Source: a bacterium UBP8_UBA817
Lineage (GTDB): Bacteria > Margulisbacteria > Marinamargulisbacteria > SXXA01 > SICP01
Direction: 5' to 3'
Length of the DNA stretch: 64,000 nucleotides
Assembly (NCBI GenBank): GCA_945888435.1
Contig: CAMCZW010000008.1
Span: 2,235-66,234 of the forward strand
Positions 1 to 50,319 of the stretch are shown in pieces. Position 1 is the first letter of the stretch; every line of letters begins with the position of its first letter. Under the pieces are notes generated by a model. The model made no database searches, had not been told where the DNA came from, and saw only the letters and a program-made list of their open reading frames with translations. Made by a program: the position numbers and the translations under genes.

Positions 1-185
1 GGGGGTGGTGGATCGCTTACGCTTTATCTCTTAACGCGAATCCCGATAGGCGAAATGATTAAGAGCTAAATGAAATCTAGGAGAGGATGGCCGAAGCCAA
101 TACGATTGAAGACAGATTAGAACCTATTTTCGCCAAAAACGAAGGCTGGTGGGGGGGTCTTCTTCCTGGATTTATGTTCGGCTTG

Positions 186-27103: not shown

Positions 27104-27268
27104 ATAAAAGGCAGTATATCAACATAGCCGCCTCTGTTAAAATAACAAAATCAATTCAAAATCAGCCTTAAATGCCCCCCAAAAAGAGGTCTATGCAAGA
27201 CATCATGCAAGTTTAAGCCCAATAAGGGACGATATTAGCTTATAACAACAACAAAAGATTGAAAGAAA

Positions 27269-27868
27269 ATGAAAAAAAACAAAACACTCATCACTATCAT
27301 CACAGCACTGGCCCTAATCGGGCACACCCACTTGGTCTCAGCAATCCAAATCGACGAATCAAGCTCTGAAATTACAATGAACCAAATTCTTCACTTCGGG
27401 TCATTCCCAGACGAAGCAATGAGAGATGCCCTCGGAAAAAACAGCTCTACGCTTAGAGGAACAGGTAATGGGCTAACAATCTTAGGTGGGGGATTCCAAG
27501 GGCTTCAACAAGAAATCGGTGACTTCGCAGACGAAGCACTCAACCCTGATGAAGATGTCTCCGCCGCAGCCACTACCCAAGCACTGGTTTACCCAAATCC
27601 ATTTAGACAAGAAACTGGGGCAAAATTAGGCTATGGATTATCCAAAGACTTAGAAATCGAAATCCAATTTTACGACATGCTCGCTCATCGAATTTTAGAA
27701 AAATCGTTTGAAAGAGGGGCTGTCGGTGGAAAAAAGGGATACAACCTGATCAGCATCGACAAAAACGACTTTGGAACCAATATCGATTTATCAGCCGGAG
27801 TTTATTTCTACTTGATCATCAATGAAGGAAAAGTATTGGCGAAAGGTAAAGCGGCAATCATCCCATGA
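27269..27868 (+). CDS. Small secreted protein with type IX secretion system C-terminal sorting domain (Por_Secre_tail-like)
   Basis: It has an N-terminal signal peptide. The C-terminal ~85 aa carry VYPNPF, ..IQFYDMLAHRI.. and ..AGVYFYLII..KVLAKGK.., which are characteristic T9SS type-A CTD motifs. Confidence 0.6.
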   Translation: MKKNKTLITIITALALIGHTHLVSAIQIDESSSEITMNQILHFGSFPDEAMRDALGKNSSTLRGTGNGLTILGGGFQGLQQEIGDFADEALNPDEDVSAAATTQALVYPNPFRQETGAKLGYGLSKDLEIEIQFYDMLAHRILEKSFERGAVGGKKGYNLISIDKNDFGTNIDLSAGVYFYLIINEGKVLAKGKAAIIP

Positions 27869-28818
27869 AAAAACACATTATTCTGTTAATTTTAATACTC
27901 GGACTAATCACACTATTCGCCAAGAATAGCGATGCTCAAGCCCGATTTTTTATGCCCACAGAAGTAGGTAGTTCGGCTGAAATGATCGCACGGGGAAATA
28001 TCGAAGGCTTCAGCAATACAGCCGAAGTCCTTTTAGAAAACCCAGCATCACTTCACACGATCAAACATTTTTCAGTATCCGCATTCACCACAACATTTAT
28101 GGATGAAGTAACTTACCAAGCCGTATCCATCGCCCTCAAAACAAAAAAAGGAGTCATCGGAGCGGCCTATATGTCTGCAGGTGTCGATGACATCACCAAA
28201 ACGTATCAAGATCAAGATGAAATCACAAATCCGCTAGGAATCATTATTCCAGTTGGAACATTTAAATACAGTACCGAAGTCGCTAAATTAAGCTACCAAT
28301 TTTCTCAAACAAAACGTCTTCACTGGGGAATATCTGGTGACTACTACGTCACTACAATCGACACAGTTAGAGGGACGGGATACAACATGGATGCCGGAGT
28401 CAAATATGACGGAAAAAAACTAGACATGGCACTAGCGATTAAAAACTTTTTACCTGGATATGATGTATCATATACGGGTGGCGAGTCAGATGGAAAAGAA
28501 GAAGTCCTACCAGCTGAGATTGTCTTTGTATCAAGATACACACTAGGCCCGATCAATTTATTTGGTCAAATTAAGTCAGGTGGCCGTTACGATCTAGTCA
28601 CGAAATCAGGTGCAATCAGCTATAAACCAGGATTTTTTCCATGGATAGAATTCACCGCTGGTTATAAAGAATTCGGAGTTCTTGATACAATTGAAACGAA
28701 CACGACCTTAGGAGTTGGGTTAACACTAGAAAACGTTAAATTTAATTACGCACTTGAATCAAGCGAGCATATCGAATTTGATAAAAAACATTATTTTTCT
28801 GTGGGGATAAAATTCTAA
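27865..28818 (+). CDS. Outer-membrane beta-barrel protein (possibly T9SS PorP/SprF- or PorQ-like)
   Basis: It has a signal peptide, alternating amphipathic strands and a C-terminal ...GIKF ending in Phe. It overlaps the upstream gene by 4 nt and sits 14 nt upstream of the giant gene. Confidence 0.4.
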   Translation: MKKHIILLILILGLITLFAKNSDAQARFFMPTEVGSSAEMIARGNIEGFSNTAEVLLENPASLHTIKHFSVSAFTTTFMDEVTYQAVSIALKTKKGVIGAAYMSAGVDDITKTYQDQDEITNPLGIIIPVGTFKYSTEVAKLSYQFSQTKRLHWGISGDYYVTTIDTVRGTGYNMDAGVKYDGKKLDMALAIKNFLPGYDVSYTGGESDGKEEVLPAEIVFVSRYTLGPINLFGQIKSGGRYDLVTKSGAISYKPGFFPWIEFTAGYKEFGVLDTIETNTTLGVGLTLENVKFNYALESSEHIEFDKKHYFSVGIKF

Positions 28819-28832
28819 GATATGACAAAAAT

Positions 28833-31800
28833 ATGAAAATAAAATCAATCATTTGGAGTTGTTTTTTAATCTGTTTCCTTTGCAGTCCGATTACTGCAAG
28901 TGTAGAGCTCCAAGTGTCTGGAAGCCTTCCGCCTATTAACGGAACCTTTATTTCAGGTAGTCATGCCGCAACAATTGGGATTTATAAAGGCACTACAGGC
29001 ACCCCCGTATGGTCAGAGCCAATTGCCAGCGTAACATTCAGAAACGGAATGTTTACAACCATTATCGGAAAAGTCACGCCCCTTGAAGCAAGCTATTTAT
29101 ACGTCACAAATCCACATATTGGCATCACTCTCACAGACACCCCTCATACAATTCAATTTGTTAAACTCACCGCATCACCATACGCATTCAAAGCCGCGGT
29201 AGCAGAGCGCGCCCGTAAAGTCTCAGCCAATGTCATCACCGGAACAATGGTTTCAACAGCAAACTTATCAAAAGGGCTATATGTTAAAGCAAGTAGCCAA
29301 AATTACTCCCTATTCGTCAATGCAAATAGCGTAGGGATTGGGAAATCAAATCCAACCACCAAGCTCGATATAAACGGAATCATCAATGCCGACGGATTTA
29401 GAATTAGAGGAGAAGATATCGCAGGAGCTCTCTCCTGGAAACCTAACACCGTCATCACCCAAAATATTTACTTTAATACAGGCCGGGTAGGAATCGGAAC
29501 CTCCATCCCCCGCTACACATTAGAAGTTGCAGGCACCATTAATGCCTCTGAATTATTTACCAAATCTAGAAAAATCTCATCCACATTAGATTGGCAACGA
29601 TCTCCAGTCGCATCAGAAAATTTGTATTTTATTAACCTGGATAAAAAGGTCGGTATTGGAGTAGAAAATCCAAGATCAAAACTTCATGTATTAAACGAGA
29701 TTAGAGTATCCACCAACGTCTATCCTGCGGCGGTTGGTATGATTAGAAGATCCTCTGCAAATAATGAGATTGAAGGTTATACCACCAGGGGCTGGTTACC
29801 CCTCACCGGCGTACGAGGCGGCGGCCAAAAAGATCGTCTAACTTTTTTTACAACTCCTAAAAATATTAGCTCTAGCCCATTATTTCTTCAAAATCATACT
29901 AATTCTTTTGTAGGAGTTGGAGTCTCCGCCCCCAACTCAACACTTCAGATCAAAGAAACCAATTCTAATAAAAAATTATTTCAAGTAACTTCAACACAAA
30001 ATAAAACATTGCTAATGGTTGGCTCTACAGGCAACGTTGGGATCGGAACCCCTACTCCAAACCAAAAGCTAAAAGTAATTGGCAGCCTCGCTGCTGACGA
30101 TATCACACTAAACGGCCTATCTATCCTTCTCGCAGTATCAAAAGACTCTGTATGGCTATTAAACGCAAGTCATAATGTCTACTATATGTTAGGGAATGTC
30201 GGGATTGGCCAAAACAGACCTGAAAGCCTTTTAGAAATTGCCCAAAGAACCAACTCAAATGATGACCCCGCCATTACATTAACCAACGGTAGAAATGTCA
30301 GCTATACCATGGGAGTCGATAACGATAAGCCAGATACATTTAGAGTAGAGTTTGGAACCACGCTTGGATCAACATCTCCATTATTTGTCGCAAAAAATAA
30401 CTTTTTAGGTATTGGCTTAGAAACCCCCTTAGCGCCCCTTCATATCAACGGAAAAATAGGAACTGTTTTTAGCGGGACATTTTACGGAGTCCCAGAAGAA
30501 ACTGCACAAGAACTCGATCCGTTAACCGGTGATGAGCTTATCCCGACTCTTCCAAAAGAAGGTCCTGGGACTCGATTTTTATGGCAACCTCAAAGGGCAA
30601 TATTCAGAGCTGGCCAAGTGGAATCAACATCCCCTTACCTAAGAGGAGAAAATTGGGATAATGAAAACTCAGGCAAATTTTCAAACGCATTTGGACTAAA
30701 TAGTATCGGTAGCGGTAATTACACCACCGTCGCCGGTGGAAAAAATAATATCGGCAGTGGCGCCTATTCGACCGTAGCTGGTGGAGAAAATAACATTTCA
30801 GAAGGAGACTTTTCACTTGCTGTCGGTAAAAATGCGACCGCACTTCACGAAGGATCTTTTATTTTTCTCGACTCATCAGCAGCCCCAACATCAACTATTA
30901 AACACAGTCAATTTTTAGTATTCGCGTCACGAGGTATGGGGATTGGAACAACCCTAACCACGGTAGACGGCATCAGATCAGGCTTAACTATTAAACGAGA
31001 TAAAAGTAGTGGGAACATTCTAAGATTTATCGGTTACCCCACAGAAAATACAGGAACCGCCCTATCATCATCTGGAAATATGATTATCGGATCACTCACT
31101 CCGGGAAACGCCAAATTATCCATAATGGGGGCAATGAACATCGGCGGAACACCAAGAACCCCCTCAGGCAATATTATTACGGCCAATATTAAGCTCAGCG
31201 TCAACCGTGACACCCCCGGTCTTTACAATACCTTCATAAAATCGATTGAAGCCATCACAACACCTGGCATGGCCATTTTAAGTGGCCCAGGGCACATCGG
31301 CATGGCCATTATTCCAAATATGTTTACAGCAGCAGACCTATTAACCGGACTTCAAGTAGGAAGCGGAAGTGTATTAGCTAGTGAGTACATTCAACCCGAC
31401 GGAACCCGCCTTGGAAAAGAAGCCGTCATTGTGTGGTTAGAAAATTCAGACGGAGATGTTTACTTCGTCTCTGGAAACACAGGAATTGGGATGGCATCAC
31501 CAAATAGTATGTTGGAACTATCTAATATCGGGAATACATTGTTTGCAAACCCACAAAATCCGGCAATTAGCTTCACCTCCTCACCCATTAGCTACAGTAT
31601 AGGGGTCAAAAGATCCGGAAACTCAGCACTCCGTATCATTAACGGCATCAATCTAACGACAGACACACCAGCATTTGCAATCCATGATAATAAAATCGGG
31701 ATTAAAACAGATACCCCGCTCGCCATGCTCCATGTCAACGGAAACGCAATTTTTAGAAGTGGCCTTGCTGTTGGAACCACCAATCAACAAGCCAATCAAT

Positions 31801-34800
31801 TGACTGTCCCTAGCGTTATGACCCGAGGCCTTAATATCAGAGGCGACGTCGTCACCTCTAGCGGAGACAAATGGAGCATAACTGGCAATACAGTCTACAA
31901 ATCATTACTTGATCCAGTAGGGATTGGAACAAGCACTCCAAGAACTGACCTTGAAGTCATTGGAATAGTCTCTGCAAACAGTTTTGTAGTTAAAAACCAA
32001 TTCGATGTTTTAGGGAATACCAAAGTCAATCGAATTGATTTCAATCTCGACGAATCTGAATTTAGATTTGAAGTACAAAATGAAAAACTATTTTTGGATG
32101 ATGTTCCTCTATCCGATATTTTATCGAGAGGGTTACCATCCGATACCAGCATTGGCCCGATCGTCATTTGGGTAGTAGATCCAACTCGAGATACTGATCA
32201 AATATTAAGCGAAACCGACATGATCTGGTATTCAGAAACCCCAAGAAGAATTGGCACTTTAGTCTCATCTCATAACATCAATATCGGAAATACCATAAAA
32301 GACTCAAGCACCTCCTTCGAAAAAACAATCCAAGTTAAAGTAGGCACCCAAAGCATACTTGATGGCCTCAGTTTACAGGGCAATATCACTCACGACGGAA
32401 CTCTCTCTCATTCTAAAAATTTCACGCTTAGATCAAGCAGATTAGTAATTGATGAAAGATGGTCAACACCGAGCACGACCAATGTTCAATATGCAAATCA
32501 TATATTTGATATCTACGGAAAATCCGTCAAATTAAAAAATTCCAACGATGGCGCAGGTACCACTAGCATGATTAACCAAGCACCCGCCACGGGAGTTCGA
32601 GTCAACGTCAGCGATGTAAAACCTCAAACCAGCGCAGAAAAAGTATATTCAGCGATCTTTATGGGGGATGTCGGGATTAAAAAATTCCCAGCTGCAATCA
32701 CTGGTGAATATATATTAGACGTTAAAGGGATCGTTTCTGCAAATCGATTTATCATTTCAAAACGACTCAGAATCACTACCATCAATGCCAACAACATTCT
32801 ATTTATTAATGAAGCAACCAATGCAATTGGAATTGGGACATCAACCCCAACCACAACACTAGAAGTAAAAAATGAAATTAAAACAACACATCTTAGAGCA
32901 AGAAGCCTAGATACCAACAAATTAGTAGTCCAAACAAAAAGCTTATATGTCGATAATCAAAAAGTCGGTATGGGCACAATTACACCTGAAAGTTTACTCC
33001 ACATCAGTAAAACACTCACAAGAACACCCACTACTGAATATATTAACTTTTTAATCACAACCAACATCCAAACTACCCAAAAAAATAATAAAGGACTAGA
33101 AATCGTCTTAGCTACTAGCGCCAACTCCACATTTGGGACACTCACAACACCAAAAACGGTTAAAGGTATGGACATCACAATGGCCAATTTTAATAGTCAT
33201 GACAGTGGTCAAGTCATTGGGATTAGCGCCGAAACCAAAAGACAAAACAATGCCTACTCTGCAATTTTCAAAGGGGGTAACGTTGGTATCGGAGTTCCAA
33301 ATCCGGTTTACCCTCTCCAAGTATCAGGGACGATTCGAGCCGACAATGTCCTTCAAATCAACCTCTTAACCCGACAAGAAGCTGCGTCATTTAATTATCT
33401 AAATGTCCTTTCACCAACTGATAATACAATGATTTCAGGGACAGCAATTGCTCGAAATATGGTTGTTCGGAAAATGAAACAAAGCAGCCGTTCTTTTATA
33501 GTGAATAATCAAATTAATCTACCGACTATCACACTTCAGGTCACCGCGAATGGATTTCTTGAAGCCATCAATTTAATTGCAAGCGAAAGCATAAAAACAA
33601 AAGACATGACATCAAGCAGACTACTATCGGGTAAAGATGCTGAGTTTCAAGGCCTTACCATCGGGATTGCCGAAGAAACCTTAGACACAGTGAGAGTTCA
33701 GACAAGCGCAAATGCCACGCAAATAATCGCAGATAAAAGCATTCTCGCAGGCGCTGCAAAAATCAACTCAACTACGCTCAGTGTTCTTCCATATGGATTT
33801 GTCGGAATCAATGAAGCGACACCGAGAGCCATCCTAGACGTCAAACTCACTAACGACACGTTCGTTACACTTCATAACAATAGCAATACCGAAAATACCA
33901 GCGTCGGGATTATCTTCACCCCAGCATCCGCAACCAATATTCGAAATATTGGTTCAGGGATTGTTGCTATCAAGACAACCGCAGATATATCCGCTTCAGA
34001 ATTAGCGTTCATGACAAATCCAGTAAGTAACACACCTCAAGAGAGAATGAGGATGTTTAACGAGGGCGGTATCCGAATCGGAGCCCCGACGGTCTCTGAA
34101 ATAGCCCCTAAAAAGAGTCATCTGCTCGTTAAAGGCACCGCCTTAGTTTCAGGGATAAGTACGGTAAATCTATACGTAAACACAGAAACCATTCGAAACA
34201 ACGGTAATATTCGAATTGCAAACTCAATCAAAATTTTTGACCAAGATTTTATCGTCTCAAGAAATTTAATGACCAATACGGTTCAGCTTCAAGAATTATC
34301 AAGTCATCCCGTCACAAGCAATCAAAAATCAATTTTATACGCCTTCAATAATGGTAGCGCAGCCGGGATTTACTATGGAACCATATTAGAAGACGGAGTA
34401 TTCGCAACAGGAAATATGGAAGATACCTTTACCGGAACAAGAAAAGTAATCCCTGCATTTAATAGTAGCCACAGCATCGTCGATACCAATGTCATGCACT
34501 GGACTACAAGCAATATCAACTCGGTCGGTATTGGAAAATTAACCGTCGGATCTCATATCACATCAAACGTAGTGGGATCAGAAGCATCTCAGTTACATGT
34601 AGCAGGTGTCACCAACTCAGTATTAGCCGATAAAACCCTTAAAAAATTGCAATTAGAATTTAAAGACAGAAACACAGCAGGCTTCAGAACATTCCAAGGC
34701 TATAAATTAACCTCCACATTCGCCACATCAAAGTTAGCCGAAAATGAACAAATGATTGGATTAGACGTCAATCTCACTACACTTGCAAGTGAAAGTAGAC

Positions 34801-39209: not shown

Positions 39210-39211
39210 AA

Positions 39212-40147
39212 ATGATCAAATCTGCAATAAGTGGGTTTTTTAATTACCTCCAATATGAGAAAAAACTCTCAAAAAATTCGCTTGCCGCGTATCAAGTAGA
39301 TTTAGAGCAATTTACAATATATTGTCCAGAAGCAATTTCATCTTCCGTAGATTGTGAAAAATATATCTCGTATATTCAAAATCAAGTCTACAAACCAGCC
39401 ACGCTCAAAAGAAAAGCTTCCTCCATACAACAGTTTTTAGACTACCTCTATCATGATTCTTGGATCACTTCCAAAATTGAACTTCCAATAACCACACCAA
39501 AAATTCCAAAGACACTTCCAAAAGTAATGACCAAAGTCCAAATCGATTCCATTATTTCAGGCCTATTAAAAGTAAGTAAAACCCCATTGAGGGACCAGAT
39601 CGTCATCAACTTACTCTACAAATGTGGCCTCAGAGTTGATGAATGCGTTCATATCACGATAGAAAATATTAATCGCAATCTCACCATCAAAGTAATTGGA
39701 AAACGATCTAAAGAACGGATTATTCCAATCAGCAAAGAAACACTTAAACTTATTAAAAGTTATATCAAAAAAGAACGTACCTCACTTGAGAAATCGCCGT
39801 CTCCGTACTTGATTTTAAACCGGAGAGGCACGAACTTAACCAGGCAAGGGATTACCTTCATAATCAACAAAAATACTTTGGGGCCACTCACAACCCCTCA
39901 TATATTCAGACATAGTTTTGCCACTCATCTTTTAGAACGGGATGCGTCAATCCGAGAAGTACAAGAACTATTAGGTCACAGCTCCATAATTACCACACAA
40001 AAATACACACAGGTATCCACTAAAAAAAGAAGAAGTATCTATGATATCGCACATCCAAGAAGTCGCCATGCAAGAAAATTATTAGATTCAACGATGATAT
40101 GTTTAATGGAAGAACAAAGGAAAAATAAGGTACAATATGGCAAATAG
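39212..40147 (+). CDS. Tyrosine site-specific recombinase, XerD/XerC-like
   Basis: 311 aa with an N-terminal SAM-like core-binding domain (..[15 protein letters not shown]..). Catalytic-domain residues R (GLRVDE), H-x-x-R ([12 protein letters not shown]) and Y (..[15 protein letters not shown]) are present. It starts 2 nt after the stop of giant gene 1 and overlaps giant gene 2. Confidence 0.85.
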
Positions 40148-40172
40148 ATTTCCCACCATTAATTGGAGTCCC

Positions 40173-43100
40173 ATGAGAAAAATTTGCCTCGCATTTTTGA
40201 CAGCACTTTTGTTCACTGCCGGTGCGCATGCACAAAACACACCTGCGTATATTACATTCCAAGGAAGCATGTCTACCGCAACCGGCGGACTTGTAGAAGG
40301 CTCAAAAGAAATCAACTTGGCAATTACAGAAGGTAAAAACGGTCGTAAAACTTATGAGAAAACCGGAGTTACCACACTATTCGTCAATGGAAGTTGTAGT
40401 GTCGTCCTCGGTCCATTAACCACAACACAACTCGACATTGTATCTCCACACCTTCAAATTACATTAGATGGCTTATCCGCCTCATTTCCAATTCCAGCAT
40501 CGGCCTACGCAATTCAAGCCAGACTGGCCGACACTGTTAAAGCAGTTGATGCAGGAACAATCACAGGCACATTTACTTCCACTGTAAATATCAACAGCAA
40601 TTTATTTGTTAAAACCAATGTATTAACCGTTGTCAGCAGAAATGTAGGTATCGGTACAAGCGCACCTGCATACCCATTAGATGTAGTCGGAGAAGTCAAC
40701 GCTACAGGATTCAAAGTCAACGGAAGAGATATTGAAAGCGTCTTATCATGGCAAAAAAATGGAAGTACCCTCTATTACAACACAGGCAGAGTCGGAATCG
40801 CTTCAACAAATCCAACCACCCTACTAGATGTCGCCGGGACCATAAATGCGCGTGAATATCGACTCAATGGCGTCGAGCTCTCTAAAGCACTTGCTAACGA
40901 ACTCGCATGGAAACCAGCAATTAGAGACGGAGATATCTACTTTAACGACGGGAAACCAAATTCATCAGGAAGAATTGTAGGCAGCGTCGGTATCGGGACT
41001 AGTCAACCAGAAAGCCGTCTTGATGTCCGAGGTGAAATTAGAATTGGGGAAGCTGCTTTCGCACCAGGCTTAGGTACCATCCAATATGTCGGGGACGACT
41101 TTTTAGGGTATACCCCAGACGGTTGGGTATCCTTAATCGGGTTACAAGGTCAAGGAAATGCCAACCAAATTACCTACTGGACTGACACAGATAATATCGG
41201 AGGATCCGATAGCTTAGTCTGGGATTATACCAATCAAAAAATGGGGATTGGAACAAGCAATCCAACTGCACAATTAACCGTCAAATCAGTATCTGACAAC
41301 CGAGCAGTACTCAATGTCACAGATAAAAATAATAAAAGCTTACTCTATATCTCGTCTCGAAACGTCGGGATTGGAACAACCACCTCTAACGTTGCACTTA
41401 AAGTTAAAGGGACTGTAGATGCAGAAAATTACTTTTTAAATGGCGTCCCTATTGCGGCCGCATTACGATCATCCTCATTATGGAATTTCCAAAACGATGG
41501 ACGAATTTTTTATAGTAATGGCAACGTTGGTATCGGGACCACAGAGCCTCGAAATTTACTCGAATTAGCCTCTAGTCCATCAGTAAATCCAATCATTACC
41601 TTTGACATTAAAGACGTTAATTTATTTAGTATGGGGATTGATAGCAGAACCCCTTCAGCATTTATTTTGTCTCAAGGAAGTGACCTGTCAAAACCAATTT
41701 TCGTATTCAAAGAAAATAAAATCGGTGTCGGATTAAATAATCCAAGCGCTAATCTTCAAGTCAGCGGCAATGGCGGCATCTTGTTCACGGGAGAATTTGG
41801 ATCGAACGATCAAGTACAAGCGAGCGGAGCCGGGACCAGACTTATGTGGATACCTTCCAAAGCAGCCTTTAGAGCTGGCCACGTCGTCGCAAATCAATGG
41901 GACCATGCCAATATTGGTAATCATTCCGTTGCATTAGGTTACAACGTCACGGCCAATGGGCTCGCATCAACCGTCGTCGGGGGATACGAAAACTGGGCAA
42001 AGGGGGATTACTCCAGTGTCCTAGGAGGATTCCAAAATAGAGCTGAAGGCAATTATTCATTCGCTGCTGGCTACAAAGCCCTTGCTAACCAAATCGGCAC
42101 CTTCGTATGGGCCGATTATTCTCCAACCGCTCCCGTTCAAACATTTTCATCCACACAACGAGACCAGTTCCTAGTCCGCGCAAGTAATGGGGTCGGAATT
42201 AACACCAACCAAACCAATCAGACCTCCTTAACCGTCGCAAGAAAAATTCCAAGCGAATACATATTTAGAGCCATCGGAAATACGAATGCCCCAAATGCAT
42301 TAGTCGTCACAACTTCAGGCAATATCGGAATTGGGACTTCTGACCCTGGCACAGCAAAACTAGCAGTTATTTCTGGAAGAGTAGGAATCGGAACGACAGA
42401 CCCAATTGCCCCACTTACCATAAGTCCTAATGCAACTGATCAATATGTCTTTGTGGCCTACAGAGAAGATGGTAATCCAGCAATGTTTATTAGACGAGAT
42501 GGAAGAATTGCCATCGGTCATGCATTAAACTTCACATTCCCAGACGATGTGACAGTTGCGGTTGCTGGCAGTTTTGGTGGCCCTACATTCAAAAAAGTAG
42601 ACCCTCGTAATCCAAGTGCATCCGTCATTATTGGTGGTAACGCCGGTTCTCCATGGCTAGTTCCATCAGAGAACAACAACAACACCTTCTTCAACAGAGG
42701 ACGAGTAGGGATAGGAACCTCCGCCCCAAGATCACTTCTTGAATTATCAAACGCCAATGGAATCGCTCCAGTTATGACTTTTAATGTTGATAACTCCACA
42801 TTTTATAGTATGGGGGTTACCAAAAATAAATTTACTATTCAACCAACCCGTGGACTAAATGCAAGCTCTCCCCTATTTACGTTAGACGGTAATGGCATCG
42901 GTATTGGAATTGGGTATAAAACACCAAGCGCCTCCCTACATGTCGCAGGATCTTCAATTTTATCTGGAAATATCGCAGTAGGAACCAGCAATGTAAGCTC
43001 TATATTCAATATCAACGTCGGCGGCCGATTAAATACACAGCAACTATTTATCGACGGAGTCGAATACAATCCAGTTCCATCTAAATGGTTAACAGGCGCA

Positions 43101-46100
43101 GGCTCACAAATCTACTATAACGATGGAAACATTGGGATTGGAACATCCACACCAAGATCCAAATTAGAAGTACTAGGAACAATCTCTGCTAATGCCATCG
43201 TCCACTCCGGGACATTCACATTAAATGGTCGTCTAAGAACAACTGAGCTCCACCTGAGAGATACAGTCGCGCCTACACTTAAATACGGTAGAGTTATCGT
43301 TGACGATGATGAATTAATTTATATCGACCCAAGCGATCGAAGAAAAGTACTATCATCTCCACTTCAAAGAGACCGAAGCCTTACCAATTCAGGATATCTC
43401 GCTCACTGGTCAAGTGATTCAGATATAGGAGTCACCAATATTTTATGGGATCGCAGCAAAAAATCGCTTGATGTCTCAGGAAACATTGATTTAAGCAGTA
43501 CATTTTCAGAACCAAACGGAATCAAGATCAAGAGTAAATTATTAATGGGTGTCCCTTCAGGAATCAGCCTAACCACAACACTTAACCATAGTGGCGACTT
43601 AAGAAGAATTAAAGGTTATACAGGTGAAGACATAACCCTGAATATCAACCAAAACTGGGGCAACTCAACCGAAATCGTCACCATTAAAGGGATGAATTTA
43701 GAAATCACACAAGAAGATGCTAGTTTACTCCTTAACAGAGCCCGAGTCGTGGGATTACATGTCGATGTATCCAGCGTCAACGTTAATACCGCACAACGAG
43801 CATCCAAAGCAGCCGCTGTCTTTTTAGGTGGAAACGTTGGTATCGGATTAGAAAACCCGAGAGAAGCCCTTGAAGTTAATGGAACAGTCTCTGCGAACTA
43901 CTTCAACCTAACGGGTGGATTATTTGTTCCAGAATTATCCGTCAACACAAACGCTCTCGTTGCCTATCGAGATTCACTATCATTACTACCAAGAGTGGGA
44001 ATTGGACTCACAAATCCTTCAACCGAACTTGAAGTAAGAGGAACCACATCAACTAACATCATGACAATCACCGGCGGATTAACAGCCACCACGCTCAACG
44101 TTAACAGCGGAACCCTATTCGTAAATAGCGCTGGCCAAATCGGGATCGGAACCACCCTACCCAATGGGCAAATCGAAATTAAAAAAACATTACTATCAAC
44201 CACAGCAGATCCATTTATTGGTGAGAAAATAAACATTGTCATCGATGGCGCAGGGACGGACCAAACGTTTTCATTTAATCAAAATTTATCTGGGTTAAAA
44301 ATTAACTTTGCAAGTAATACAGGCAGCCAAATTGGAAGTGGCAAAAAAGCCATTGGTACTGACATTAATGCAACAAGAATGACCGTCGTAACCCAAAATA
44401 CATTAATTGGGCTTAATGTTGATGTAACAGGCACTGGCGGAAAACGATATGCAGGATTATTTTTAGGCGGAAAAGTGGGGATTGGAGTCACTCAGCCTCT
44501 CGCAGAATTACATGTCAGCGGAAGCATTTTAGCCGATAACCTATTCTTAAATGGAACTTTAGAATCCGAAAGAGCCACCTTTAATAGATTGACCGTCAAC
44601 ACGCTCGCACGCTTCAACGGATCCGTCACAATCAACCAATTAGAAGTACTGGGAACACTCACCGCAAATACATTTGTACTTGAAACAGCCCTTGAAGCCC
44701 AAAATGCAAATTTTGCAACAATTAATGCAAAATCAGCATCAATCAACACCCTTACCAAAACTCGGGATTTAACTATCAGAAGAAAACTAACTGCCCCTCA
44801 AGGAATATTTTCAGGCGGAGTCGGAATTGGAACCCCCGCACCAAGTAGCGGATTAAGTGTTAACGGCCCCCTACTCGCAACCAACATTGCAGCCTCCGAA
44901 ACTCTAAGTCTTACATCCGGCACAATGAATATCCTTGCGGGGACTCTATACGCCATCAATGGAAAAGTAGGGATTGGAACCACTCAACCACAAAACCTAC
45001 TTCACATTAAAACATCACGTGCTACAGAGTTTGATCCAACAGATACTCAAACATGGAATGCAATGAGAATTCAAAATGCAAACGACACTCTTAATACAGC
45101 CGCAAGTCTTTTATTTTTAGTCGATACCAATAGCCCCTCAATTAATATCGGGTCCGCCATTGGTGCGTTGCGTAGCACAGCTTCAAGGGGTGAACACGGA
45201 TCATCCCTATACTTCGCAACTGACCCCGCAACGGATGTCCCCACCATTAGAATGTTCATTTCATCAGAAGGGAATGTCGGGATTGGAACAACGACTCCAA
45301 CATCCATGCTTCATGTCAACGGAAGTTTAAAAGTAGACAATGTGGCGACTCTAAACACTTTAGCAACATCTCTCATTAGATCATCCGGAGAATTGGTCTT
45401 TAGACCATCTGACACCATCATCGTTGAAGGGTATGTCAGTACCAACCAAGTCATTCAAGTTAATAATGGATTAAGCTTCAAACACGCAACAACTATCCCA
45501 ACCCAAAGGACAGGGTATGGAACCCTTTACGTCGATGGAAGAAGTAACGATTTATTCTTCTTAAAACCAAGCGGAGCTTCAGTCAACATTACCCGAGGCT
45601 TTACGGGTAAAGCCTATAGAATCCCATTCTTCAACTCTCAAGGTCAACTTGACGATGACACAGAGCTATACTGGAATAACGCCACAAAAACATTCAGAAT
45701 CGGTACAGCCAATGTAGTAGCAATCGTTGAACACCGAGTAACAGTTGATAATCTAATCAATCAAAGTCTTGCCGCAGAAAAAATCACAATGGACTTTGGA
45801 GATCGAACCACTGCCAGCTCAGCGATATTTAGAGGGCTCCAAATTAATCTCACAGGACAAACACCCTCAGATCCAGATAATTTTGGAAGACTCGCTCAAA
45901 ATGAAACAGCCATCGGACTAGATATCGATCTATCGACACTAAGATCTGAAAGAAGCACTTCCCAATCACTTGGTGGGGTTGTTTTACAAGGATTTAAATA
46001 CGCAGCCCTATTTAGAGGTGGAAGCGTCGGAGTAGGCACTGCAACTCCAATAGCAGGCCTCCATGTAGTCAGCGAAACTGCCGGAAAAGCAGCCTTTAGA

Positions 46101-49100
46101 GTCGATACTACTCGAAAAGATTCTGTAGTTATGACCAATGCATTAGTCGTGAGTTCCAACAGCTTAGTCGGTATCGGAATAGCAGATCCAACCGCTAAAC
46201 TTCATATCAAAGCCAATGATGATCCATTTATTAATGACGCTGACGAAGCGGTTTTCAAAGCAACAAAAACAGATGGTAGTCCACTATTCATCGTTAAAAA
46301 TAATGGAAGAGTCGGAATCGGAACAACATCTCCTGTATCAGCACTCACTGTTTCAGGAAACTTGTTTGCGACCACAGCATCCTTTAATGAAATCACCGCG
46401 ACCACTCTCAACGTCTCCAACGGTGGTTTATTTGTAAACGCAGCAGGAGAAGTCGGATTTGGAACAACTCAACCTCAAGGAAATCTCAGCTTCTCAAAAA
46501 CGATTAATGCCGCCAATATTCCGGCAGCAGGCTTTATCTCTCAAAAAATGTTACTTAACCTCAACGGAGGAACTGACTCGTTAACATTTAACCTTAACCG
46601 AGATATTACCGGCATGGATATCGCTATCCAATCCGCTGCAGCCAGTCAATTAGGCTCAGGAAGCACAGCCCGAGGGCTTTCAATCGATCTAAGGCAAGTC
46701 GCTCTAGACACCAGTAGTAAGATTGTCGGGTTAGACATCGATGTCACAGGCGCAACAGGAACAAGATACGCCGCAATTTTGAATGGGGGACGCGTCGGTA
46801 TCGGGGTAACAAACCCAACCACCACATTAGACGTCTCTGGAGATATTAAAGCAACCGATCTTGATTTAACTGGTCGATTAACCGCAGGTCAAATTACTGC
46901 AAATCAGTTAGTCGTTCTCCAAACATCTATATTTAATGGATCCATTACAGCCAATAATTTAGTCGCCACCACCATTTCTGCAAATAACATCACATTAAGT
47001 GGCTTGTTTAGAATTTCAACCGCATCCATTACAACGCTTAATGCCAATATCGCAACGTTCAATAAATTAGGGATACGAGTCAGCTCCCCACGACAACCAT
47101 TAGATGTCTCTGGAAATGCCATCATCTCAGGCGGATTATTAGGGGTAGGCGTCACTAACCCAACCGCACTCCTTCATATCGGGACATCAACATCAGCAAG
47201 CCCACTCAGAGTCCAAATTAACAATGGCTTCTCAAACCCATACGCACTAGTAGTCAGTGGAAACGGACGTATCGGGATCAGCACTTCAAACCCAGTCGCA
47301 AAATTAAGTATTTCTAAAGTACTAGGAGATACCGATGATTTATTGTTAATCGAAAAATCAGACGCAACCCCTCTGATGAAAATTACCAATGCAGGTCTCG
47401 CAGGGATTGGGACCGCAGTTCCAGTAGCTCAGTTACATATCAAGTCAACCGCAAGCGTATCGCCATTAAGAATTGATGGATCAACATCAAATCCCCTACT
47501 TCATATCGGGCCTACAGGGAACGTCGGGGTAGGAATTAGTAATCCAGCAGCAACGCTCCATGTTAGCGGGAATATCCCTCTGATTGTTGGAAACGCCACC
47601 AACCCATATTCACTCTATGTTGGAGACACCGGACGTGTCGGGGTTGGAACGTCAGCATTAACCTACCGATTCAATGTCAACGGCAAAATGTTAATGGGAT
47701 CATTAGGATCAATCACATTACCAAGTTGGATTGAGTCTAATAACAATATTGGATTAATTTCAGCAAAAGGAGCTGATTTTTCAATCCTAGGTCTAGAAAG
47801 ACGAAGTGGAGGCACCACTGACTATGACTCCGTAATTCAGTGGGGATCAAGTTCAGATGACAGCCTTTTATTTAAAAACAATGCAAATCAAACTATCATG
47901 CAACTCATTGGAAGCGGAAAACTAGGGATTAATGCCACTCCAACCGCAGCACTTCATGTCAGTGGTAATACACCTCTTATCATTCAAAGTGCAAGCCGAC
48001 CATTTGCATTAATCGTCTCAAGCAACGGATTTGTAGGGATTAATACCAATCGTCCTCTAGTTGCCCTCGATGTTAACGGAACCATTCGTGCAAAAGGATT
48101 TAGTGTCACTCATGAAAGTCTGAACGCATCAACCGTCAATATTACAAAACAAATGTCACTTCTAAGAACCGTCACAACTAACATCGCAGTTACAATGCAA
48201 AATATTAGATTAAATCTTGAAAATGATATTAACAATGAAGTAGTAGGCCTAGATATCGTCCTCGACTCTCTGCCAAACGCAGCCCTCGGTGGCGCACGGG
48301 ATTACTCATTATTTAATACCAATGCCTATGGACTTAAAGTCGACATGACGGGGCTTCTAACCACAGACCCCACATTAGGTGGAAGTTCAAATGGCAAAAA
48401 ATACGCAGCCGCTTTCTTAGGTGGCGCAGTGGGGATTGGATTAACTAACCCAGATACCACTCTACAAGTCGTAGGTCCTGCCGGCGGCAATATTGCAAAA
48501 TTTGGAAGTATAGCAGCAGACTTAACAATTAAAGACGAGAATAACGGTACCATCCTTATGTCAATAAGAAATCTAATTAGCCGTGATACGGAAGCGCAAA
48601 AAACACTCTATCTTTCTGGAGATAAAGTAGGGATTGGAGTCGATCCACAAACCGATGAGGCTAGTGTTAAATTTGTAGTCAATGGAGATATTAGAGTTGG
48701 GATGAAAACCAGCGCATCAACCAGCAGTGGTAACCGAGTTTACTTCTCTGGCGGACCAGATTTGAGCCTTACCCAAGACAATGACAACAATAGCCCATTA
48801 TGGATTGGACGAAGCAACGTCAGAGCCAACCAATCTGAATTACTAGTCAATGCCGGTAACGGTGACGGGTTAGATCGATTTGTGGTTGGGTTTACAAAAA
48901 GTACAACATTCAGACCGGTCTTACAGGTTATCCCATCTGTAAATGCCGCGGGTACTCTATATAAAAGTAGAGTGGGTATCAGTGATGGATCTAGCACAAC
49001 ATTTAAACCATCTGCACAGCTCCATGTATTTGGATCAACAAGTGGCAGTGCAAGCAGTATTTCAAGCCACCTTGTCACGTTTGAGAACAACGGCGGTGAA

Positions 49101-49814
49101 GATGCCGATTCTCTCGTCATCTGGCATACCGGCTATGCAAATGCGTCCGCAGTTCCAACCGGATCTAACTTTATTACATTCGCCGACCAAACCCACATCT
49201 TAGGTGAAATCGAAGGCAGTGGAGATAACGGTATCCGATTCAAAACCAACGGTGCGGACTATGCAGAGTATCTTCCTAAAATTAATCCAACTGAAGTCAT
49301 TGCCAAAGGGGATATCGTCGGTGTTTATAACGGTAAAATCAGCCTAAAAACAAGCGGCGCATCTCAAGTACTCGTCAGAAGTTCGGCCGCAAGTATCGCA
49401 GGAAACTGGCCAGGTGAAGAAAAAGAAAAAGAATATGAACTTATCGCTTTCTTTGGACAAGTTAAAGTAAAGGTAACCGGCCCAATTAATGAAGGTGATT
49501 ATATTATCCCATCCAGTCAAAATGACGGAACTGGTATTGCAATCCCTAAAGAAGCGATTACCCCTAAGGACTTCTCAAATATCGTTGGTCAAGCATGGCA
49601 AACTAACCTTAGCAAAGAAACTAAATTAGTTTTAGCCGGTGTCGGATTCAACTTCACAATGCCAAAAATTGGAAGTTATCTTGAAAGAATAGATTCTCTA
49701 GAAATAAAAATGAAAGAGTTAGAAAATAAACAAATTCAAATTGAAACCAACTTCAAATCAGAATTTGAACGTCAATCAAAAGAAATCGATAAATTACTTA
49801 AAAAGTTAAACTAA
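40173..49814 (+). CDS. Giant secreted fibre-like repeat protein 2 (~3213-3225 aa), paralogue of protein 1
   Basis: The ORF begins at 40137, but the signal peptide MRKICLAFLTALLFTAGAHA|Q starts at 40173, which has GGAG upstream. It has the same repeat cores (for example RVGIGTSAPRSLLELS, NVGIGTTTPTSMLHVNGS) and the same C-terminal module as protein 1. Confidence 0.85.
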   Translation: MRKICLAFLTALLFTAGAHAQNTPAYITFQGSMSTATGGLVEGSKEINLAITEGKNGRKTYEKTGVTTLFVNGSCSVVLGPLTTTQLDIVSPHLQITLDGLSASFPIPASAYAIQARLADTVKAVDAGTITGTFTSTVNINSNLFVKTNVLTVVSRNVGIGTSAPAYPLDVVGEVNATGFKVNGRDIESVLSWQKNGSTLYYNTGRVGIASTNPTTLLDVAGTINAREYRLNGVELSKALANELAWKPAIRDGDIYFNDGKPNSSGRIVGSVGIGTSQPESRLDVRGEIRIGEAAFAPGLGTIQYVGDDFLGYTPDGWVSLIGLQGQGNANQITYWTDTDNIGGSDSLVWDYTNQKMGIGTSNPTAQLTVKSVSDNRAVLNVTDKNNKSLLYISSRNVGIGTTTSNVALKVKGTVDAENYFLNGVPIAAALRSSSLWNFQNDGRIFYSNGNVGIGTTEPRNLLELASSPSVNPIITFDIKDVNLFSMGIDSRTPSAFILSQGSDLSKPIFVFKENKIGVGLNNPSANLQVSGNGGILFTGEFGSNDQVQASGAGTRLMWIPSKAAFRAGHVVANQWDHANIGNHSVALGYNVTANGLASTVVGGYENWAKGDYSSVLGGFQNRAEGNYSFAAGYKALANQIGTFVWADYSPTAPVQTFSSTQRDQFLVRASNGVGINTNQTNQTSLTVARKIPSEYIFRAIGNTNAPNALVVTTSGNIGIGTSDPGTAKLAVISGRVGIGTTDPIAPLTISPNATDQYVFVAYREDGNPAMFIRRDGRIAIGHALNFTFPDDVTVAVAGSFGGPTFKKVDPRNPSASVIIGGNAGSPWLVPSENNNNTFFNRGRVGIGTSAPRSLLELSNANGIAPVMTFNVDNSTFYSMGVTKNKFTIQPTRGLNASSPLFTLDGNGIGIGIGYKTPSASLHVAGSSILSGNIAVGTSNVSSIFNINVGGRLNTQQLFIDGVEYNPVPSKWLTGAGSQIYYNDGNIGIGTSTPRSKLEVLGTISANAIVHSGTFTLNGRLRTTELHLRDTVAPTLKYGRVIVDDDELIYIDPSDRRKVLSSPLQRDRSLTNSGYLAHWSSDSDIGVTNILWDRSKKSLDVSGNIDLSSTFSEPNGIKIKSKLLMGVPSGISLTTTLNHSGDLRRIKGYTGEDITLNINQNWGNSTEIVTIKGMNLEITQEDASLLLNRARVVGLHVDVSSVNVNTAQRASKAAAVFLGGNVGIGLENPREALEVNGTVSANYFNLTGGLFVPELSVNTNALVAYRDSLSLLPRVGIGLTNPSTELEVRGTTSTNIMTITGGLTATTLNVNSGTLFVNSAGQIGIGTTLPNGQIEIKKTLLSTTADPFIGEKINIVIDGAGTDQTFSFNQNLSGLKINFASNTGSQIGSGKKAIGTDINATRMTVVTQNTLIGLNVDVTGTGGKRYAGLFLGGKVGIGVTQPLAELHVSGSILADNLFLNGTLESERATFNRLTVNTLARFNGSVTINQLEVLGTLTANTFVLETALEAQNANFATINAKSASINTLTKTRDLTIRRKLTAPQGIFSGGVGIGTPAPSSGLSVNGPLLATNIAASETLSLTSGTMNILAGTLYAINGKVGIGTTQPQNLLHIKTSRATEFDPTDTQTWNAMRIQNANDTLNTAASLLFLVDTNSPSINIGSAIGALRSTASRGEHGSSLYFATDPATDVPTIRMFISSEGNVGIGTTTPTSMLHVNGSLKVDNVATLNTLATSLIRSSGELVFRPSDTIIVEGYVSTNQVIQVNNGLSFKHATTIPTQRTGYGTLYVDGRSNDLFFLKPSGASVNITRGFTGKAYRIPFFNSQGQLDDDTELYWNNATKTFRIGTANVVAIVEHRVTVDNLINQSLAAEKITMDFGDRTTASSAIFRGLQINLTGQTPSDPDNFGRLAQNETAIGLDIDLSTLRSERSTSQSLGGVVLQGFKYAALFRGGSVGVGTATPIAGLHVVSETAGKAAFRVDTTRKDSVVMTNALVVSSNSLVGIGIADPTAKLHIKANDDPFINDADEAVFKATKTDGSPLFIVKNNGRVGIGTTSPVSALTVSGNLFATTASFNEITATTLNVSNGGLFVNAAGEVGFGTTQPQGNLSFSKTINAANIPAAGFISQKMLLNLNGGTDSLTFNLNRDITGMDIAIQSAAASQLGSGSTARGLSIDLRQVALDTSSKIVGLDIDVTGATGTRYAAILNGGRVGIGVTNPTTTLDVSGDIKATDLDLTGRLTAGQITANQLVVLQTSIFNGSITANNLVATTISANNITLSGLFRISTASITTLNANIATFNKLGIRVSSPRQPLDVSGNAIISGGLLGVGVTNPTALLHIGTSTSASPLRVQINNGFSNPYALVVSGNGRIGISTSNPVAKLSISKVLGDTDDLLLIEKSDATPLMKITNAGLAGIGTAVPVAQLHIKSTASVSPLRIDGSTSNPLLHIGPTGNVGVGISNPAATLHVSGNIPLIVGNATNPYSLYVGDTGRVGVGTSALTYRFNVNGKMLMGSLGSITLPSWIESNNNIGLISAKGADFSILGLERRSGGTTDYDSVIQWGSSSDDSLLFKNNANQTIMQLIGSGKLGINATPTAALHVSGNTPLIIQSASRPFALIVSSNGFVGINTNRPLVALDVNGTIRAKGFSVTHESLNASTVNITKQMSLLRTVTTNIAVTMQNIRLNLENDINNEVVGLDIVLDSLPNAALGGARDYSLFNTNAYGLKVDMTGLLTTDPTLGGSSNGKKYAAAFLGGAVGIGLTNPDTTLQVVGPAGGNIAKFGSIAADLTIKDENNGTILMSIRNLISRDTEAQKTLYLSGDKVGIGVDPQTDEASVKFVVNGDIRVGMKTSASTSSGNRVYFSGGPDLSLTQDNDNNSPLWIGRSNVRANQSELLVNAGNGDGLDRFVVGFTKSTTFRPVLQVIPSVNAAGTLYKSRVGISDGSSTTFKPSAQLHVFGSTSGSASSISSHLVTFENNGGEDADSLVIWHTGYANASAVPTGSNFITFADQTHILGEIEGSGDNGIRFKTNGADYAEYLPKINPTEVIAKGDIVGVYNGKISLKTSGASQVLVRSSAASIAGNWPGEEKEKEYELIAFFGQVKVKVTGPINEGDYIIPSSQNDGTGIAIPKEAITPKDFSNIVGQAWQTNLSKETKLVLAGVGFNFTMPKIGSYLERIDSLEIKMKELENKQIQIETNFKSEFERQSKEIDKLLKKLN

Positions 49815-49818
49815 GTCA

Positions 49819-50319
49819 TTGCAAGCATCACGAATATTGACCATCGTTAGCTTACTCGATCGATTAAATGAAACACTACTCCAGTCCAAAAAAATAGAGG
49901 ACTGGTTATGGGAATGGGTTAAGATTGAAGGCTTTAAAATCACAGGTCAATGTCAGCATACTGGCCGCTGCTGTAAAAAGATCATGATCTATACTCAAAA
50001 TAGGGCCATCCAAACACAAAAAGAATTTATCCAATTTCAAGAAAATAAAAATCCCCTGCCCTTCATTCCCAATTACAATCAAAAAAACTCAGAAAAAATC
50101 GACTCATTTGACTGTCAAAATCTTAGCCAATACAATACCTGCAAAGATTATCAAAATCGTCCCTTAGCCTGCAAAAATTACCCTCAAAGCAATATTTTAT
50201 CCGAAACACCTCTCTACGAAGGCTGTGGCTACCGCATCCAAAGTAGCTCTCCACCCAAATGGGCACATCCCAAGTTAATTCAAAAAATCAAAGTGCTACA
50301 AAAAAAACTAGAACTTTGA
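49819..50319 (+). CDS. Cys-rich protein, putative Zn/Fe-chelating CxxCxxCC (YkgJ-like) domain
   Basis: 166 aa with a CQHTGRCC cluster plus further Cys (CQN..C..C..C). It starts 5 nt after giant gene 2. Confidence 0.35.
   Translation: MQASRILTIVSLLDRLNETLLQSKKIEDWLWEWVKIEGFKITGQCQHTGRCCKKIMIYTQNRAIQTQKEFIQFQENKNPLPFIPNYNQKNSEKIDSFDCQNLSQYNTCKDYQNRPLACKNYPQSNILSETPLYEGCGYRIQSSSPPKWAHPKLIQKIKVLQKKLEL

Follow-up and report, generated by a model that had tools for sequence, protein, structure and literature searches.

The mosaic adhesive trimeric (MAT) fibres of Bdellovibrio bacteriovorus carry an N-domain that is presumed to bind an unidentified element of the cell surface (Caulton et al. 2024, PMC10769870), and the gp12 appendages of phage phi29 are homotrimers whose intramolecular chaperone (IMC) domain is missing from the virion (PMC9863714). 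A further point of comparison is T9SS, the type IX secretion system, reported from the Fibrobacteres-Chlorobi-Bacteroidetes (FCB) superphylum (PMC11205867, PMC9170169). In this system the loops of PorV bind the C-terminal domain (CTD) of the substrate (PMC10994853), and two related barrels retain their cargo at the surface, the giant adhesin SprB being bound by SprF and a type-B CTD protein by PorP (PMC9143113). Here we describe a cluster of six open reading frames (ORFs), g1 to g6, in a 64-kb stretch of bacterial chromosome (the window, which throughout means this stretch at its full length). Two of them, g3 (fibre A) and g5 (fibre B), encode giant fibre precursors and are accompanied by genes for a small secreted protein with a CTD-like domain (g1), a PorV-like outer-membrane beta-barrel (g2), a tyrosine recombinase (g4) and a Cys-rich protein (g6).

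The source organism belongs to Candidatus Margulisiibacteriota and probably to Marinamargulisbacteria. Homologues of g5 (2.3-4.8 kaa) are, where a taxon is named, always from Candidatus Margulisbacteria or Marinamargulisbacteria, and the taxon-named records among 18 g2 loci, recovered by a g2-profile scan of one genome per species, are all Margulisiibacteriota or Marinamargulisbacteria. Margulisbacteria are an uncultured lineage, sister to cyanobacteria; the phylum belongs to the Cyanobacteriota/Melainabacteria group. A literature search found no publication describing their cell surface, and the Margulisbacteria genome paper makes no mention of secretion, adhesins, pili or S-layers. To our knowledge, outer-membrane modules of the CTD/PorV type have been thought specific to the T9SS of Bacteroidota and their relatives.

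With moderate confidence, we read the locus as encoding a pair of giant cell-surface fibres, duplicated long ago and belonging to the phage-tail-fibre/MAT class, together with a cognate outer-membrane module. This reading is built on the domain identities of the encoded proteins, the cleavage motif of the giants, the folds of chaperone and barrel, the CTD-like domain of g1 and the conserved triad of g1, g2 and fibre. Giant MAT-like fibres with Peptidase_G2-type chaperones and a PorV-like/CTD-like pair recur in distant members of a phylum that lies outside the known range of the T9SS.

Two giant fibre precursors and a putative outer-membrane pair

The two giant proteins are paralogues with 30% identity over ~2900 aa, and both begin, as do nearly all of their homologues, with a signal-peptide-like N-terminus (~aa 1-22 in g3). 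In at least six independent assemblies the exact g4 protein is encoded between giant ORFs that match those of the window in length, including GCA_947445385.1 and GCA_947493445.1, and the giant ORFs are therefore neither disrupted pseudogenes nor assembly artefacts.

By profile comparison, the C-terminal module of both giants is homologous to the auto-chaperone of phi29 gp12 (Peptidase_G2). A profile of the last ~315 aa of the family matches gp12 in the PDB, both as C-terminal fragment and at full length (3gqh, 6qz9, 3suc), and the chaperone domain of tailspike Dpo31, a link that emerged only at the family level: a single-sequence PDB search with the last 399 aa of g5 returned nothing useful. 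The Pfam Peptidase_G2 model (PF11962, 'IMC autoproteolytic cleavage domain') is matched by 33 of 37 family members (best E 1e-9); g5 alone scores 14.4 bits at full length and 21.8 bits as a C-terminal fragment, against a cut-off of 25. The S74 chaperone (PF13884), of equivalent role but of a different family, has no match in g3 or g5. A-D-Y-A-E-Y is invariant ~185-190 residues before the C-terminus in ~55 homologues and aligns with the D-F-A-E-Y (DFAEYFE) that starts at residue 1 of 3gqh, the released fragment of gp12. The acidic D-x-x-E motif expected at the G2 self-cleavage point is present in both g3 and g5, and its Asp and Glu we take to be the catalytic residues of MEROPS G2. The domain carries the auto-chaperone fold and ends, in both proteins, in a long helix. 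Since gp12 is a trimer that loses its IMC, g3 and g5 would by homology trimerise on this domain and be cut before its first residue, the predicted cleavage falling between A3274 and D3275 of g3 (PEA/DYAEY) and between A3040 and D3041 of g5 (NGA/DYAEY).

The stalks are beta-rich, each ~3000 aa long, and match PHROG tail-fibre families, namely phrog_9942 (g3, E 1.2e-18; g5, E 2.9e-31) and phrog_18345 (g5, E 1.3e-16); there are additionally faint signals for YadA_head and UspA1 repeats in g5 (E 0.04-0.07) and for a bactofilin-like beta-helix. Matches to the VGIGTxxPxxxLxV motif, in the form [VI]G[IV]G-x2-5-P-x3-6-L-x-V, number 22 in g3 and 30 in g5, as compared with less than one in shuffled sequences. 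Motifs of this VGIGT type are irregularly spaced, ~40-500 aa apart, and span 10-13% of the residues; a BLASTP comparison of each giant with itself revealed no internal repeat. Pfam detected no YadA anchor, RTX, cadherin or sortase motif or other adhesin family in g3 or g5. Neither protein bears a type A (TIGR04183) or type B (TIGR04131) CTD, NCBIfam giving no family of any kind at E <= 0.1 and Pfam no Por_Secre_tail.

Directly after the signal peptide, nearly every family member carries a conserved N-domain of ~120 aa. No Pfam or NCBIfam model matched this domain in g3 or g5 and a PDB profile search with it gave no significant match. A HMMER search retrieved 22,322 cluster representatives at E <= 1e-3, and 1,577 at E <= 1e-10, with the domain almost always at residues ~20-150 of proteins that range from 130 to 4800 aa. 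When eight such proteins were scanned, Peptidase_S74 was found at the C-terminal end of three and Peptidase_G2 at that of one. A locus in JGI metagenome 3300072015 encodes adjacent giant fibres of 3505 and 3623 aa with Peptidase_S74 ends, one of which shares the N-domain of the window's fibres; they are preceded by genes for 225-aa and 311-aa proteins that overlap by 4 nt, an arrangement that resembles g1-g2-fibre by layout alone.

The sequence-only reading of this stretch had described two paralogous giant ORFs with signal peptides, a (V/I)GIGT core motif, and a shared C-terminal module followed by a coiled coil, and it had noted a resemblance to phage tail fibres together with the lack of a type-B CTD, autotransporter barrel, RTX or cadherin repeat and LPXTG motif; on all of these points we concur. 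Disruption of the ORFs, which it had named as grounds for refutation, is contradicted by the intact copies in other assemblies. Its description of the giants as consisting almost entirely of repeats was overstated, given the low motif coverage, the irregular spacing and the lack of self-repeats. Nor are the proteins novel or without a recognisable family, as it had suggested: the C-terminal module is a Peptidase_G2-type chaperone, the N-domain belongs to a very large family, and the overall design matches the published MAT fibres of Bdellovibrio (PMC10769870). Of the profile and structure searches that it had proposed for the two ends of the proteins, the one at the C-terminus led to gp12 and the one at the N-domain produced no significant PDB match.

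The protein encoded by g1 scores 23.6 bits with TIGR04183 (cut-off 23) and, having a signal peptide as well, classifies as a type-A CTD protein, although PF18962 on g1 alone stays at 15.7 bits, under its cut-off of 27. Across the g1 family TIGR04183 is matched by 19 of 20 members (best E 7e-10), the PorU CTD by 15 of 20 and PorZ by 3 of 20, and the alignment displays the classical CTD motifs YPNPFRQ, AGVYFY and KGK in addition to conserved LHFGS and LTILGGGF motifs (family consensus LHFGSG and LSILS.GF). All 21 homologues that were found are small (133-214 aa, with 20 of them in the range 185-214 aa). A PDB profile search with the family gave nothing beyond one match without significance, to an ice-binding protein chain at its C-terminal end.

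For g2, an AlphaFold2 model (mean predicted local distance difference test score, pLDDT, 92.2) forms a 14-strand barrel whose best Foldseek matches in the PDB are the PorV chains 8gl6_F (E 2.6e-11, template modelling (TM) score 0.73) and 6h3i_F, at TM scores of 0.71-0.73; both entries are translocon complexes of F. johnsoniae, and TodX and FadL rank behind them. PorV_fam is matched by all 38 members of the g2 family (best E 6e-23), whereas g2 alone reaches 37.2 bits with PorQ (E 1.7e-9; cut-off 220) and 17.7 bits with Pfam PorP_SprF (cut-off 22.3). The matches of g2 are significant yet below the curated cut-offs, and the protein is therefore a superfamily relative rather than an equivalog. The earlier assignments of g1 as a T9SS-CTD protein and of g2 as an outer-membrane beta-barrel thus stand, and the gene order, whose occurrence in other genomes the sequence-only reading had proposed to check, does recur.

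This recurrence was quantified by hidden Markov model (HMM) searches of 20 g2 loci (L012-L031). A g1 homologue lies directly upstream of g2 in 11 of the 20, and an ORF with the fibre N-domain then follows g2 in all 10 loci that could be read; the remaining 9 of 20 have a stand-alone g2 paralogue that adjoins neither a fibre gene nor g1. One genome contains three separate g1-g2-fibre triads. On a very distant contig of 1.92 Mb, g1 and g2 precede a fibre that has the same N-domain and a G2 chaperone (GADYAEYIE) but an entirely different stalk with ~49-aa tandem repeats (1355 aa).

Some of these loci have features of their own. At L012 (10915-14982) the stalk of a short fibre is composed of tandem repeats of ~49 aa (DTDQIADKAVTVNKIADGTAAQKELLFWNGSNWASEATGNLFGSLAYMDQV), about a dozen in number and nearly identical, and this near-identity suggests recent expansion or homogenisation. 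The region 5' of that triad (3889-9385) encodes three proteins that may be further envelope or surface components. One, of 1169 aa, contains a coiled coil of ~500 aa and gives faint SLH and FlgD_ig-like signals; the other two are rich in Cys, Gly and Ser and have hydrophobic C-terminal tails. The stand-alone PorV-like paralogue is ~40% identical to g2 at the nine loci that have it, in a conserved neighbourhood of housekeeping genes comprising LpxB, peptide deformylase (Pdf), dCTP deaminase (Dcd), RNase T, the barrel, FdhD and a SpoIIE-like protein.

Every distant Margulisbacteria genome examined has both fibre paralogues, arranged in the same gene order. In three of these genomes the genes follow one another as g1-like, g2-like, fibre A, [Rrf2, epimerase], NUDIX, Xer, Peptidase_M50, fibre B, CxxCxxCC, g7-like, YchF, VCA0040-like and M16, with identities to the window's proteins of 38-40% for g1, g2 and Xer and of 51-63% for g7 and YchF. 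The last ~315 aa of g5 are 40-56% identical to the B-type fibres of distant genomes and 38% identical to g3. Fibre B is thus closer to its distant counterparts than to its own paralogue, and the duplication is therefore older than the divergence of those genomes. The A-type lineage of g3 includes P0048 and P0059, the latter being syntenic in locus L010. An assembly labelled 'Thermoproteota archaeon' (L011; GCA_042576685.1, JBHPEX010000003.1) carries the full synteny of Margulisbacteria (fibre A, NUDIX, Xer, M50, fibre B, CxxCxxCC, YchF, M16) and is probably a mislabelled or mis-binned metagenome-assembled genome (MAG).

Proposed assembly model and competing explanations

According to the model that we favour, the fibre precursors would leave the cytoplasm by Sec export, and three chains would then trimerise from the C-terminus on the chaperone, as homology to gp12 suggests. 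The chaperone would subsequently cleave itself off between the Ala and Asp of ADYAEY, leaving the mature fibre. The N-terminal domains of the mature fibre would sit proximal to the cell, and its length may be very roughly at least 100 nm, a crude extrapolation from the tip of Bdellovibrio Bd2133 (~370 aa per 150 A). On the strength of conserved adjacency and of analogy with PorV, PorQ and PorP/SprF, the loops of g2 may bind the CTD of g1, and the pair could serve as an outer-membrane dock, and possibly as an export aid, for the fibre N-termini. A single g1/g2 pair would probably serve fibre A and fibre B alike, and the fibres presumably serve in adhesion to particles, hosts or other cells, or in making contact with them.

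Several points weigh against this reading. Trimerisation, self-cleavage, surface location and binding between g1 and g2 are all inferred, and the model does not account for the passage of a fibre of 3 x 3000 aa across the outer membrane. No second g1/g2 pair accompanies fibre B, and adjacency counts for less in a lineage in which general synteny is strong. With the NCBIfam PorV/PorQ family g2 attains 44.9 bits (E 1.1e-11), under the cut-off of 90. The idea that the fibre N-domain is a disguised CTD to which g2 could bind was ruled out, the hhalign probability being 0.6%, and the N-domain is therefore not a CTD mimic. Finally, the N-domain is found in a fibre of S74 type (locus L032) that has no adjacent g1 or g2, and the pair is therefore not universally required for the N-domain. 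The more specific proposal, that outside the FCB group a PorV-like barrel and its CTD partner make up by themselves an outer-membrane module that docks or exports trimeric phage-like fibres, is put forward only as a tentative possibility.

An alternative is that a genuine, if cryptic, T9SS-like system exports the fibres, with an SprA/Sov-type translocon and motor encoded elsewhere, g1 acting as cargo or adaptor and g2 as a PorV-type shuttle. The type-A CTD-like domain of g1 is what such a system would lead one to expect, the solved structures closest to g2 are PorV chains within T9SS translocon complexes, and a folded trimeric fibre would need a large translocon. The Prokaryotic Genome Annotation Pipeline (PGAP) moreover names homologues in Margulisbacteria MAGs 'T9SS type A sorting domain-containing protein' and 'PorP/SprF'. 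However, neither g3 nor g5 has a CTD of type A or B, and no T9SS core gene (SprA/Sov, PorK/L/M/N (GldK-N), PorU, PorW/SprE) is present in the 64-kb window or in the flanks examined. The g1 search, limited in its sensitivity, returned only the short orthologues and no other CTD cargo. T9SS has been described in the FCB superphylum (PMC11205867), our literature search found no paper linking type IX secretion to Margulisbacteria, and Bdellovibrio displays its MAT fibres although the paper that describes them names no secretion system (PMC10769870). On balance we regard a T9SS-like exporter as unlikely.

It could also be argued that g1 and g2 have nothing to do with the fibres, that they form a separate outer-membrane pair such as a FadL-like channel and its lid protein, and that their position next to fibre A reflects no more than synteny. 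The neighbourhood that is conserved throughout the phylum does include clearly unrelated housekeeping genes, a g2 paralogue stands by itself beside LpxB, Pdf, Dcd and RNase T, and fibres with the N-domain occur without g1 and g2. Against this, g1 and the fibre N-domain flank linked g2 in 10 of 10 readable loci and stand-alone g2 in 0 of 9, and the triad persists in a very distant genome despite total replacement of the stalk and otherwise different flanks. The occurrence of three separate triads within one genome and the overlapping or 14-nt junctions, which are compatible with co-translation, argue in the same direction. We therefore hold an unrelated pair to be rather improbable, and retain the reading of fibres with a cognate outer-membrane module.

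The position of g4, exactly between the two giant paralogues (2-nt gap, 11-nt overlap), invites the view of a variable or mobile locus, such as a shufflon, a phase-variable system or an integrative element, in which the recombinase acts on the fibre genes. The protein is a Xer-type tyrosine recombinase (Phage_integrase E 7e-37, SAM-like N-domain E 3e-10; catalytic R, K, HxxR, H and Y recognisable by eye), although it falls short of the equivalog models for XerC (242.8 bits, cut-off 335) and XerD (241 bits, cut-off 330). At four loci of other genomes (L007, L009, L010 and L011) the interval from fibre A to fibre B holds an orthologue, 38-40% identical, with NUDIX and M50 genes on its two sides, and the interval in the window looks like a streamlined form of this arrangement. 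A DNA repeat search detected no long direct or inverted repeats linking g3 with g5 or flanking the locus, only motif-level matches of 20-60 nt (60-80% identity) and one imperfect inverted pair of 21 nt. The shufflon or phase-variation idea was dropped as this search revealed no recombination substrates, and the claim of the sequence-only reading that the fibres have their own recombinase is therefore not supported. The two paralogues share just 30% protein identity, the locus keeps its chromosomal neighbourhood in those distant genomes that were examined and is identical in six assemblies, and the window has no tRNA, att-like repeat or compositional island. Recombinase-driven variation is thus largely refuted, and g4 is most likely a conserved syntenic housekeeping gene rather than a functional part of the fibre system.

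That the giants are residual or domesticated tail fibres of a prophage or tailocin, as the PHROG matches and the phage-type chaperone might suggest, is refuted for any current prophage and very improbable overall, given that the window holds no phage structural genes among its housekeeping flanks (SepF, MazG, RseP-like M50, YchF, M16, fatty-acid synthesis), that g3 and g5 bear signal peptides and that the neighbourhood has been inherited vertically since before the sampled lineages split; an ancient phage origin of the fibre domains is nonetheless likely and compatible with the reading that we favour.

Gene layout and chromosomal setting

The coordinates of the cluster are given in Table 1. 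The ORF scan, in which all six ORFs lie on the + strand, reproduced exactly the co-oriented genes and small gaps or overlaps reported before; g2 overlaps g1 by 4 nt, g3 follows after a gap of 14 nt and g4 after one of 2 nt, g5 overlaps g4 by 11 nt, and 4 nt separate g5 from g6. The cluster had been taken to end as a unit at 50319, but the same-strand run continues beyond g6 with g7 (50411-50866), YchF (50875-51969) and a VCA0040-like gene (51962-52759). That it forms one transcription unit is a possibility suggested by the tight spacing; a scan for promoter and terminator consensus sites found fewer than, or no more than, shuffled sequence contains and is therefore uninformative on operon structure.

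Table 1. Coordinates of the fibre locus and of the domains it encodes, in window positions.
Feature	Nucleotides	Residues	Strand	Description
Divergent intergenic region 5' of g1	27104-27268		.	165 nt; only sizeable non-coding gap before the cluster (ORF map); likely promoter region
g1	27269-27868		+	199-aa secreted protein; signal peptide, C-terminal T9SS type-A-CTD-like domain
g1 CTD-like beta-sandwich	27581-27865	~105-199	+	Preceded by variable linker
g2	27865-28818		+	317-aa PorV/PorQ/PorP-like (FadL-fold) outer-membrane beta-barrel
g3 (fibre A)	28833-39209		+	3458-aa precursor: signal peptide, N-domain, stalk, C-terminal chaperone
g3 N-terminal domain	28881-29261	17-143	+	Conserved in family
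g3 C-terminal chaperone	38655-39206	3275-3458	+	Peptidase_G2-type intramolecular chaperone; terminal ~50 aa coiled coil
g4	39212-40147		+	311-aa Xer-type tyrosine recombinase
g5 (fibre B)	40137-49814		+	3225-aa precursor: signal peptide, N-domain, YadA-head-like patch, beta-helical stalk, C-terminal chaperone
g5 N-terminal domain	40233-40586	33-150	+	Conserved in family
g5 YadA-head-like patch	41859-42116	~575-660	+	Left-handed repeat patch within stalk
g5 C-terminal chaperone	49257-49811	3041-3225	+	Peptidase_G2-type intramolecular chaperone; terminal ~47 aa coiled coil (nt 49668-49811)
g6	49819-50319		+	166-aa CxxCxxCC (YkgJ-type) putative Zn/Fe-chelating protein

The assignment of g6 follows from PF03692 (30 bits, cut-off 23), and of three distant genomes two (L007 and L011) have an orthologue downstream of fibre B, which is absent from the third (L009). 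Together with g4 and the downstream genes, g6 is, on our reading, a vertically inherited neighbour and probably not a part of the machine. The 151-aa g7, which has an acidic tail, matches nothing in Pfam, NCBIfam or PHROG; it is 51-63% identical in three distant Margulisbacteria genomes, a degree of conservation above that of g1, of g2 and of the recombinase, and its gene is always placed between YchF on one side and fibre B or the CxxCxxCC gene on the other.

The window as a whole is ordinary chromosome, with SepF, MazG and an RseP-like M50 protease on the 5' side of the cluster and YchF, an M16 peptidase and fatty-acid synthesis genes on the 3' side. Its genes include no capsid, portal, terminase, tail-tube, sheath or baseplate gene, which settles in the negative the earlier proviso that the giants might sit in a complete prophage, and no tRNA or Rfam family was found within the 64 kb. 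Two further ORFs had no Pfam match at E <= 1e-3, one at 22084-23130 (+, 348 aa) and one at 26456-27103 (-), the latter with YggS-like motifs by eye (GENRVQE, IGHLQSNK) that remain below threshold.

At 186-9604 on the - strand the window carries a Type I restriction-modification system (HsdR 186-3341, HsdS 4124-5380, HsdM 8054-9604) interleaved with genes for Bro-N (3280-4134), a YhcG/DUF1016 PDDEXK nuclease (5377-6417), Fic/DOC (6418-7023) and RhuM (7020-8057); the GC content of this region, 0.47-0.49, is slightly above that of the remainder, and it looks like a small defence island. Across the window GC skew is negative in almost all 2-kb bins and AT skew is positive from ~10 kb on, regardless of gene strand. 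If the skew reflects replication, the 23-kb + strand fibre cluster would be transcribed against the direction of replication.

Comparison with known systems

Together the two fibre genes occupy ~20 kb, roughly 1% of a ~2-Mb genome, and the presence of both paralogues in the same order in all distant genomes examined indicates that the fibres are probably central to interactions with particles, hosts or other microbes. The locus joins two fields, that of phage-type self-chaperoning trimeric fibres and that of CTD/PorV-type outer-membrane modules, and its interest hangs mainly on the hypothesis that a CTD/PorV-type pair anchors fibres of this class or helps to export them. The g1-g2-fibre triad is a testable candidate for holding or moving such fibres at the outer membrane. 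If the docking-module proposal is true, either the CTD-PorV interaction is older or more widespread than the T9SS, or a cryptic T9SS-like machine exists in relatives of the cyanobacteria.

Among uncultured bacteria, including Patescibacteria, Peptidase_S74 'tail fiber domain-containing proteins' resemble g3 and g5: they have motifs of the VGIGT type and YadA-head-like patches, and they carry the N-domain as well as an intramolecular chaperone at the C-terminus. They differ in that their chaperone is of the S74 rather than the G2 type, and the example at L032 has no g1 or g2 beside it. The gp12 protein of phi29, which forms the pre-neck appendage (tailspike) of the virion, is 854 aa long and has an enzymatic beta-helix, whereas g3 and g5 are cellular proteins of more than 3200 aa that are predicted to be exported by Sec and have another stalk and N-terminus; g5 alone is under the Pfam Peptidase_G2 cut-off, and self-cleavage of g3 and g5 is a prediction.

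The T9SS offers a parallel of a different kind. Like the pairs PorV/type-A CTD, PorQ/PorZ and SprF-PorP/SprB or type-B CTD, a barrel (g2) and a CTD-like protein (g1) are here encoded beside a giant filament gene, and g2 adjoins a giant fibre gene just as sprF adjoins sprB. Unlike those pairs, however, the host is outside the FCB superphylum, the giants lack a CTD and the barrel gene precedes the fibre gene; the sequence examined contains no translocon or motor genes, and g2 is under the curated PorV/PorQ cut-off.

The closest correspondence in design is with the MAT fibres of Bdellovibrio, which are likewise chromosomally encoded, have the character of phage tail fibres and consist of a signal peptide, a beta-rich N-domain of ~120-130 aa, a long beta-helical stalk (trimeric in MAT fibres and presumably so in g3 and g5) and a C-terminal chaperone of self-cleaving type. 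The N-domains of the two groups are likened by position and description and not by sequence, and three of the eight sampled proteins with the window's N-domain end, like MAT fibres, in Peptidase_S74. In g3 and g5 the chaperone is instead of the G2 type with a coiled-coil tail, the proteins are 3-4 times longer (3.2-3.5 kaa as compared with roughly 0.6-1.2 kaa), and two conserved paralogues take the place of a variable repertoire of 21 members. Unlike MAT fibres, g3 and g5 are encoded beside a PorV-like barrel and a CTD-like protein, and should the docking-module proposal hold, this pair would be a first tangible candidate for what anchors MAT-type fibres to the surface.

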